A stretch of 397 bases of DNA, from the NCBI RefSeq assembly GCF_003334315.1, contig NZ_QOWR01000134.1. One strand, given 5' to 3'. The stretch comes from Escherichia coli. GTDB lineage: Bacteria; Pseudomonadota; Gammaproteobacteria; Enterobacterales; Enterobacteriaceae. Below the pieces are notes generated by a model. The model was not told the origin of the DNA, made no database searches, and saw only the letters and a program-made list of their open reading frames with translations. This document shows positions 1 to 397 of this stretch, piece by piece. Position numbers and translations under genes: made by a program. Numbering within the stretch: position 1 is the first letter of the stretch; each line of letters begins with the position of its first letter.

Positions 1-20
1 TTATCGTGAGAGTAATTCAT
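1..20 (-). CDS. insL: IS186 transposase InsL, N-terminal fragment (first 6 codons, MNYSHD...); CDS runs off the window start
   Basis: ATG at 20..18 on the minus strand, followed by AAT TAC TCT CAC GAT = M N Y S H D, matching the recalled N-terminus of the IS186 transposase. It sits 55 nt inside the putative element end. Only 20 nt are visible. Confidence 0.55.
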
Positions 21-52
21 CGGCACGTTAAATCATATCAGGCGTAATACCA

Positions 53-75
53 CAACCCTTAAGTTAGCGCTTATG
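53..75 (-). repeat. IS186 terminal inverted repeat (about 23 bp)
   Basis: Minus-strand read 75->53 is CATAAGCGCTAACTTAAGGGTTG, matching the recalled IS186 terminal inverted repeat. The partner repeat would lie outside the window, so the inverted pairing cannot be verified here. Confidence 0.6.
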
Positions 76-96
76 GGATTACTCCCCGCACAACGG

Positions 97-249
97 CTAC
101 TTCTTCGGTTCGTAAGCGAGAACAGCCTTAAACTCAATATTACGTTCCTTCACCGTAAACTCACACAGCGAGTCTCCGACCAGAAGCGTAAATCCCAGCA
201 CCGTTAAACACAGCACTATGACTGCCGCAAGGGCATATTTCGTCAGCAT
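97..249 (-). CDS. hokE: Hok/Gef-family type I toxin, 50 aa (small membrane-damaging host-killing peptide)
   Basis: ATG at 249..247, stop TAG at 99..97. Product [50 protein letters not shown] has an N-terminal hydrophobic helix (about 178-237 in window coordinates), the conserved SLCE motif and the AYE C-terminal motif typical of Hok/Gef peptides (compare Hok ...SLCEIRY...AYES, Gef ...DLCEVHI...AYESE). It is near-identical to my recollection of E. coli HokE. A GGAGG ribosome-binding site lies 10 nt upstream. Confidence 0.85.
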
Positions 250-285
250 GTTTATATTGCCTCCATGCGAAGAAGGGACTACCAT
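97..285 (-). CDS. Possible mok-like (modulation of killing) reading frame: in-frame N-terminal extension of hok from ATG at 285 (62 aa)
   Basis: In-frame ATG at 285..283 lies 12 codons upstream of the hok start. In hok/sok loci, translation of an overlapping upstream mok frame is required for hok translation and is the target of Sok. No ATG-initiated ORF exists in the other two frames of the leader (M P R V stop at 361; M E A I stop at 266). No clear ribosome-binding site precedes the 285 ATG, so this is weak. Confidence 0.25.
257..285 (+). promoter_or_regulatory. Candidate sigma70 promoter for the Sok-like RNA (-35 TTGCCT at 257-262, 17-bp spacer, -10 TACCAT at 280-285)
   Basis: Hexamers match the consensus at 4/6 (TTGACA) and 4/6 (TATAAT, with A2 and T6 retained) with optimal 17-bp spacing. 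The predicted start near 292-294 is consistent with an antisense RNA covering the mok-like initiation region. Sequence-only prediction. Confidence 0.3.
260..264 (-). promoter_or_regulatory. Shine-Dalgarno sequence (GGAGG) for hok
   Basis: Plus-strand CCTCC at 260-264 is GGAGG on the minus strand, with a 10-nt spacer (CAATATAAAC) to the hok ATG at 249. Confidence 0.7.
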
Positions 286-293
286 CCAAATTG

Positions 294-352
294 TTCGGGT
301 TTGGAGTGGCAGCCCCAGGGTGTACTGACCCCAAAAAGTTGGACAGTTAAAC
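294..352 (+). ncRNA. sokE: Putative Sok-like antisense RNA (antitoxin of the type I TA system); boundaries approximate
   Basis: Position is inferred from hok/sok architecture: Sok is transcribed antisense to the hok mRNA leader and covers the mok translation-initiation region, here just upstream of the ATG at 285. A candidate promoter lies at 257-285 on the + strand. No convincing intrinsic terminator is visible, so the 3' end is uncertain. Confidence 0.4.
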
Positions 353-397
353 ACGAGGCATATAGGTCTGATTCCGATATTCAATTGGAGTCAGACC

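Follow-up and report, generated by a model that had tools for sequence, protein, structure and literature searches.

An IS186 end within the hairpin that follows the hokE stop codon in Escherichia coli

The DNA analyzed here, a stretch of 397 nucleotides from Escherichia coli that we call the window, holds a reading frame for the hok-family toxin HokE, and its first 75 nucleotides look like the end of an insertion sequence. This raises the question of whether the toxin gene merely has a mobile element as its neighbor, or whether the element lies inside the transcription unit of the toxin and, if so, what is left of the locus. In hok-family mRNAs, the tac/fbi closure controls hok translation, the full-length mRNA being untranslatable until 3′ processing, and fbi lies downstream of a post-stop hairpin such as the one found at hokE (PMC9841398). 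All five hok loci of K-12 are described as putatively inactivated in the part of PMC11551753 that cites Pedersen & Gerdes 1999.

Results

The original prediction, made from the letters of the sequence, held that the first 75 nt are a terminus of IS186, closed by the terminal inverted repeat of that element and carrying the transposase start MNYSHD 55 nt inside. We searched for the 23-mer CATAAGCGCTAACTTAAGGGTTG and found it once in the window, as an exact match (0 mismatches) at 75..53 of the minus strand. In 200 shuffles that preserved dinucleotide composition it never turned up, even with 3 mismatches allowed, while the 75-mer as a whole matches genomes at E = 1e-30, which together rule out a chance resemblance to IS186. 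On the same strand, 20..3 translates as MNYSHD, and its ATG at 20 lies 55 nt inside the element end at 75, as predicted; the RefSeq CDS WP_001300563.1, in the locus of E. coli C (L001), begins at the same base. The segment 1..20 (minus strand, ATG at 20..18) is the first 6 codons plus 2 nt of the gene for the InsL transposase, and a 32-nt untranslated leader separates this start from the 23-bp terminal inverted repeat at 53..75 (minus strand). By analogy with other elements of the IS4 family, this repeat would be the end that the transposase binds and cleaves.

Comparison with sequenced genomes led to the same identification. Of 5426 complete E. coli genomes, 2188 contain matches to window 1-75 at 100% or near-100% identity (median, 3 per genome), which lie on chromosomes and plasmids and in many different contexts; the annotation over these matches is always “IS4-like element IS421 family transposase.” In K-12 MG1655 (NC_000913.3), window 1-321 is 100% identical to a region that spans the annotated end of IS186B, the start of insL2 and hokE, RefSeq placing hokE at 607836-607988 and “insertion sequence:IS186B,” with insL2, at 608007-609351. 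The comparison with K-12 that had been proposed as a check thus bears out the identification of 1..75 (minus strand) as the left end of IS186 (IS186/IS421, IS4 family), multicopy and 100% identical to IS186B. Its boundary is exact: the inverted repeat starts at position 75 and the target-site duplication at position 76. The element reads on the minus strand from 75 down to 1, with its remainder past the left edge of the window, which, read on this strand, ends with GAAGAAGTAG CCGTTGTGCGGGGAGTAATCC CATAAGCGCTAACTTAAGGGTTG TGGTATTACGCCTGATATGATTTAACGTGCCG ATGAATTACTCTCACGATAA. Window 1-75 is a genuine IS186 end next to hokE, and as such it was already known from the K-12 annotation.

We then asked where IS186 lies relative to hokE. 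The hokE ORF (97..249, minus strand; 50 aa plus stop; RefSeq WP_000956455.1, type I toxin HokE) is intact, and its product, read from 249 to 97, ends in ...EPKK. One copy of a 10-bp target-site duplication occupies 76..85, reading GGATTACTCC on the plus strand and GGAGTAATCC on the hokE strand, and GGAGTAATCC flanks both ends of IS186 as a direct repeat in E. coli C (L001) and K-12 (L002). In-silico removal of IS186 and one copy of the duplication from the K-12 sequence yields a 572-nt sequence that is present verbatim (100%) in other E. coli genomes, and a 170-nt junction-specific query found the uninterrupted hokE junction in 3647 of the 5426 genomes. Multiple copies in varied contexts, together with this presence/absence polymorphism at hokE, mark IS186 as mobile. 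The empty site is GGGGAGTAATCCCC, i.e., GGGG-AGTAAT-CCCC, whose letters fit exactly the published IS186 target pattern, 5′-GGGG(N6/N7)CCCC-3′, a motif with only 19 N6 sites in K-12 (PMC5009759).

This target is also a structural element of the toxin mRNA. We folded the hokE region of an IS-free genome, taking as the transcription start the position that corresponds by homology to the beginning of the Rfam hok/sok leader model. In the predicted fold, the IS186 target forms a stem of 10 bp that begins 5 nt past the stop codon. There too, nt 1-11 pair in an 11-bp helix with nt 356-366, the latter segment lying about 40 nt past the insertion point. The MFE and centroid structures share the hairpin and the long-range helix (z = -6.4; none of 100 shuffles reached this stability); the tac/fbi pairing of hokE is nevertheless a thermodynamic prediction, backed by one diverged paralog (hokC). 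In the window, the hairpin is reduced to a remnant at 76..92 (minus strand; UGUGCGGGGA-GUAA-UCC|), cut by IS186 within its 3′ arm, and both partners of the long-range pairing are missing: IS150 has taken away the 5′ end, and IS186 has moved the 3′ partner 1.35 kb away. The earlier claim that the hok locus sits next to a mobile element therefore needs to be qualified: the adjacency stands, as in K-12, but “abutting” understates the case, since IS186 lies inside the hokE transcription unit, where it splits the post-stop hairpin and parts the ORF from the predicted fbi-like 3′ segment.

The K-12 hok loci offer a comparison for this arrangement. In agreement with the expectation that several of them have IS elements close to, but not within, the reading frame, RefSeq annotation places IS186B 18 nt after hokE, IS186A 19 nt after hokC and IS150 in mokA/sokA. 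At hokE, IS186B of MG1655 shares with the window its junction, its orientation (transposase co-directional with hokE) and its 10-bp duplication, whereas upstream MG1655 has an intact sokE and hokE leader and the window has an IS150 end from 321 onward. At hokC (gef), IS186A (L009 588-1952) hit the homologous post-stop hairpin, 19-20 nt after the stop codon and with the 10-bp duplication GGATCACTCC, and it too comes between the ORF and the predicted partner of the mRNA 5′ end, although hokC is a different paralog at a different chromosomal site and IS186A has the opposite orientation relative to the toxin gene. After in-silico removal of IS186A, the hokC hairpin reads GGCGGGG-AGTGAT-CCCCGCC, i.e., G4N6C4, and in the predicted fold the 5′ end pairs beyond the hairpin, with a clear terminator next. 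Of the IS186 downstream of gef/hokC in K-12, published work supposes that it disrupts fbi and the processing of the mRNA, and yet the gene is still transcribed and still antisense-regulated (PMC3562002), given which “inactivated” may be too strong a word. The hairpin of K-12 hokA (GGCGGGAAATTATTCCCGCC) has GGG/CCC only, without G4/C4 runs, and no IS186, a single case that is consistent with the motif rule.

Based on these data, we propose that IS186 transposed into the G+C-rich hairpin after the hokE stop codon, duplicating the 10 bp GGAGTAATCC. As the insertion point is in the 3′ UTR of the hokE mRNA, the toxin ORF is thereby parted from a downstream segment whose predicted partner, in the uninterrupted allele, is the 5′ end of the mRNA; in the tac/fbi closure known from the hok family, this segment would be the fbi-like half. 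The ORF is also cut off from its natural 3′ end. By analogy with hokC/gef and with hok of R1, the likely consequence is that the folding, processing and regulation of hokE mRNA are disabled while the reading frame stays intact. With the other side of the locus also destroyed, by IS150 in sokE/mokE, hokE is an intact ORF stranded between two IS ends.

A hokE mRNA that ended at the post-stop hairpin itself would, on the other hand, leave IS186 a mere neighbor, with no effect on expression or regulation. The hairpin, which is G+C-rich and only 5 nt from the stop codon, could serve as a 3′ end or as a stabilizer, but no T run follows it, and in the intact mRNA the predicted partner of the 5′ end lies 40 nt beyond it. 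Consensus scans for promoters and terminators, in the window and in the intact hokE locus, called no sites, a result that fits this alternative, as does the continued transcription and antisense regulation of gef/hokC in the presence of IS186 (PMC3562002); hokC, however, is the very paralog that has the same arrangement, with a clear terminator after the pairing segment, and the known architecture of the family puts fbi downstream of such a hairpin (PMC9841398). We consider it unlikely that IS186 is without effect on hokE, and retain the reading in which it parts the ORF from the fbi-like segment.

IS186 is found at the hokE site in both orientations. The window-type junction, with the transposase gene co-directional with hokE, is present in 1741 genomes, and a constructed query for the reverse orientation at the same site was found verbatim in 840. 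We verified the reverse orientation in four annotated loci (L004 3575-5045; L005, L006 and L008), in which the antiparallel transposase gene lies between hokE and entD, or between hokE and other genes. The 10-bp duplication is identical in the two orientations. The counts of empty (3647), forward (1741) and reverse (840) junctions add up to more than 5426, as each is the number of genomes with at least one such junction and the three are not exclusive states. At least part of this excess is due to tandem hokE duplicates of which one is empty and one occupied. Strain Ecol_316 (L007) has two tandem hokE copies of this kind, at 2920-3072 and 3422-3574, about 502 bp apart; only the second has IS186, and the first retains an intact GGGGAGTAATCCCC.

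From the two orientations and their shared duplication we infer at least two independent IS186 insertions at the hokE hairpin, as would be expected for a palindromic target. A common origin of both orientations, in one ancestral insertion that later either flipped at its site or spread through recombination, strikes us as quite improbable. Such a history would account for the shared 10-bp duplication, and the genome counts are not event counts; but a flip of the IS alone between its 23-bp inverted repeats, with the flanks unchanged, is not known as a common event, experimental IS186 insertions repeatedly use the same GGGG-N6-CCCC sites in both orientations (PMC5009759), and in K-12 the homologous hairpin of hokC has been hit independently.

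Repeated insertion at the hokE hairpin has precedents in the IS186 hot spots of the lon promoter of E. coli B, fimA and menC (PMC5009759), which share with it the motif, the use of either orientation and the reuse of one site. At hokE, in contrast to these hot spots, the motif is a structural hairpin of the 3′ UTR of a toxin mRNA, and it is natural genomes, not mutation-accumulation lines, that show the recurrence. Neither the papers from the long-term evolution experiment nor those about mutation accumulation mention hok at this site. That the hokE post-stop hairpin is a recurrent natural target of IS186, in both orientations and across thousands of genomes, is a mildly new observation.

The window holds just 75 nt of IS186, and the completeness of its own copy is judged from genomes that match the window. 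The proposed leftward extension, carried out in two of these, E. coli C (L001; whole window 100% identical) and K-12 (L002; window 1-321 100% identical), showed a complete element, with a transposase ORF, a second inverted repeat and the 10-bp duplication. The length of IS186 is 1339 bp between the outer bases of its two inverted repeats (L001, L002 and L009); in K-12, the second copy of the repeat, in reverse complement, lies 1293 nt away, and CATAAGCGCTAACTTAAGGGTTG makes up both ends of IS186A as well as of IS186B. The transposase gene of the complete element is a single ORF of 1113 nt encoding 370 aa, and its product scores 133 bits against the NCBIfam model NF033592 (IS4 family transposase; cutoff 115), which identifies InsL, at the level of sequence, as a putative DDE transposase of the IS4 family.

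That the 75 nt belong to a remnant, with IS186 truncated or reduced to a solo end, rather than to a complete active element is highly improbable: the window stops too early for completeness to be read from it, and IS-mediated rearrangements do happen at the hokE locus (in strain LS4, and with IS1 in the IS150 of E. coli C), but the two inspected genomes in which IS186 has the window orientation both contain all 1339 bp of it, with the gene for the 370-aa transposase intact and with duplications that match. Taken as a whole, the reading of window 1-75 as the left end of a complete and ordinary IS186, located in the 3′ UTR hairpin of hokE and parting the ORF from its fbi-like segment, has in our estimate a probability of about 0.93.

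At its other end, the window runs into a second insertion sequence. An IS150 that is co-directional with hokE has its right end at 321..397 (minus strand; plus-strand letters TGTACTGACCCC...), the base at 321 (T) being ambiguous between IS150 and flank. This segment is identical to the right end of K-12 IS150 and multicopy, with 100% identity under IS150 transposase annotations, and it is absent from the K-12 hokE locus. K-12 MG1655 was rejected as the source of the window, since 322-397 does not align to its hokE locus and is IS150.

The IS150 insertion leaves a truncated sokE antitoxin RNA gene at 293..320 (plus strand), of which the first ~28 nt remain, K-12 sokE (L002 3734-3793, minus) mapping to 293-352. 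It splits the SokE terminator hairpin and also lies nine codons into the mokE leader frame. A putative sokE promoter, the weak pair TTGCCT (257-262) and TACCAT (280-285), can be picked out by eye and was left uncalled in the promoter scan. The Rfam model RF01794 (hok leader plus Sok) scores 84 bits on the K-12 and intact alleles and finds nothing at threshold in the window, because IS150 truncates the leader at 321. The sokE::IS150 junction is present in 552 of 5426 genomes, and the allele has been published from XL1-Blue and more than 400 natural isolates (PMC11551753). Together with IS150 in mokA/sokA of K-12, this published allele is of the same kind as window 321-397, with an insertion in the antisense-RNA/leader region; these IS150 hits differ from IS186 at 1-75 in element and mechanism, and affect the 5′ regulatory side of a hok locus, not its 3′ side.

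IS150, hokE and IS186 are all co-directional, hokE being bracketed by two IS ends. The same arrangement is present in E. coli C and in the B-lineage strain BLR(DE3), both of which match the window at 100%. At a cutoff of 80%, matches to the window were found in 1817 genomes, a mix of IS186-only, IS150-only and both; genomes with both junctions number about 476, an estimate by inclusion-exclusion only. In the E. coli C locus (L001 4347-6250), the IS150 beside hokE is itself broken by a copy of IS1A, giving nested IS insertions.

The hokE frame (window 97-384, minus strand) is open upstream across the IS150 junction as far as a TTG inside IS150, giving a 95-aa ORF. With this ORF and co-directional transcription from IS150, aberrant expression of hokE could occur. 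High expression of hokE has been reported for REL606 (E. coli B; PMC3446290), and we count this, together with the 100% match of the B-lineage strain BLR(DE3) to the window, against the reading of hokE as disabled. In one locus (L003 601-869), and at equivalent positions elsewhere, RefSeq annotates a frameshifted “hypothetical protein” antisense to the hokE leader/sokE region, probably an annotation artefact overlapping the sok/mok region.

Discussion

Beyond correct annotation, the IS186 end at hokE carries little weight in itself, as IS186B at hokE is already in the K-12 reference annotation, and the IS-disrupted state of the K-12 hok loci was described already in 1999. With the regulatory parts at both ends of its mRNA cut off by IS elements, the hokE ORF of the window is not to be annotated as a functional toxin-antitoxin module.

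A more general proposition is that the conserved, G+C-rich post-stop hairpin of chromosomal hok mRNAs is a target of IS186 whenever it contains GGGG-N6-CCCC, which would make IS186 a recurrent, lineage-independent disabler of hok/sok loci. The forward insertion at hokE, the reverse insertion at hokE and the insertion at hokC imply at least three separate events; as a general rule, we regard the proposition as unlikely. In a stronger version, IS186 hits might be selected, as they would defuse a chromosomal toxin while its ORF is kept, or read-through from hokE might drive the transposase gene in the forward orientation.

The two co-directional IS elements around hokE are a likely endpoint for IS-mediated deletions or rearrangements near the ent/fep genes. 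In strain LS4 (L006 4880-7170), SDR oxidoreductases and an ABC permease replace entD/fepA beyond IS186, which suggests a rearrangement or deletion ending at this element.
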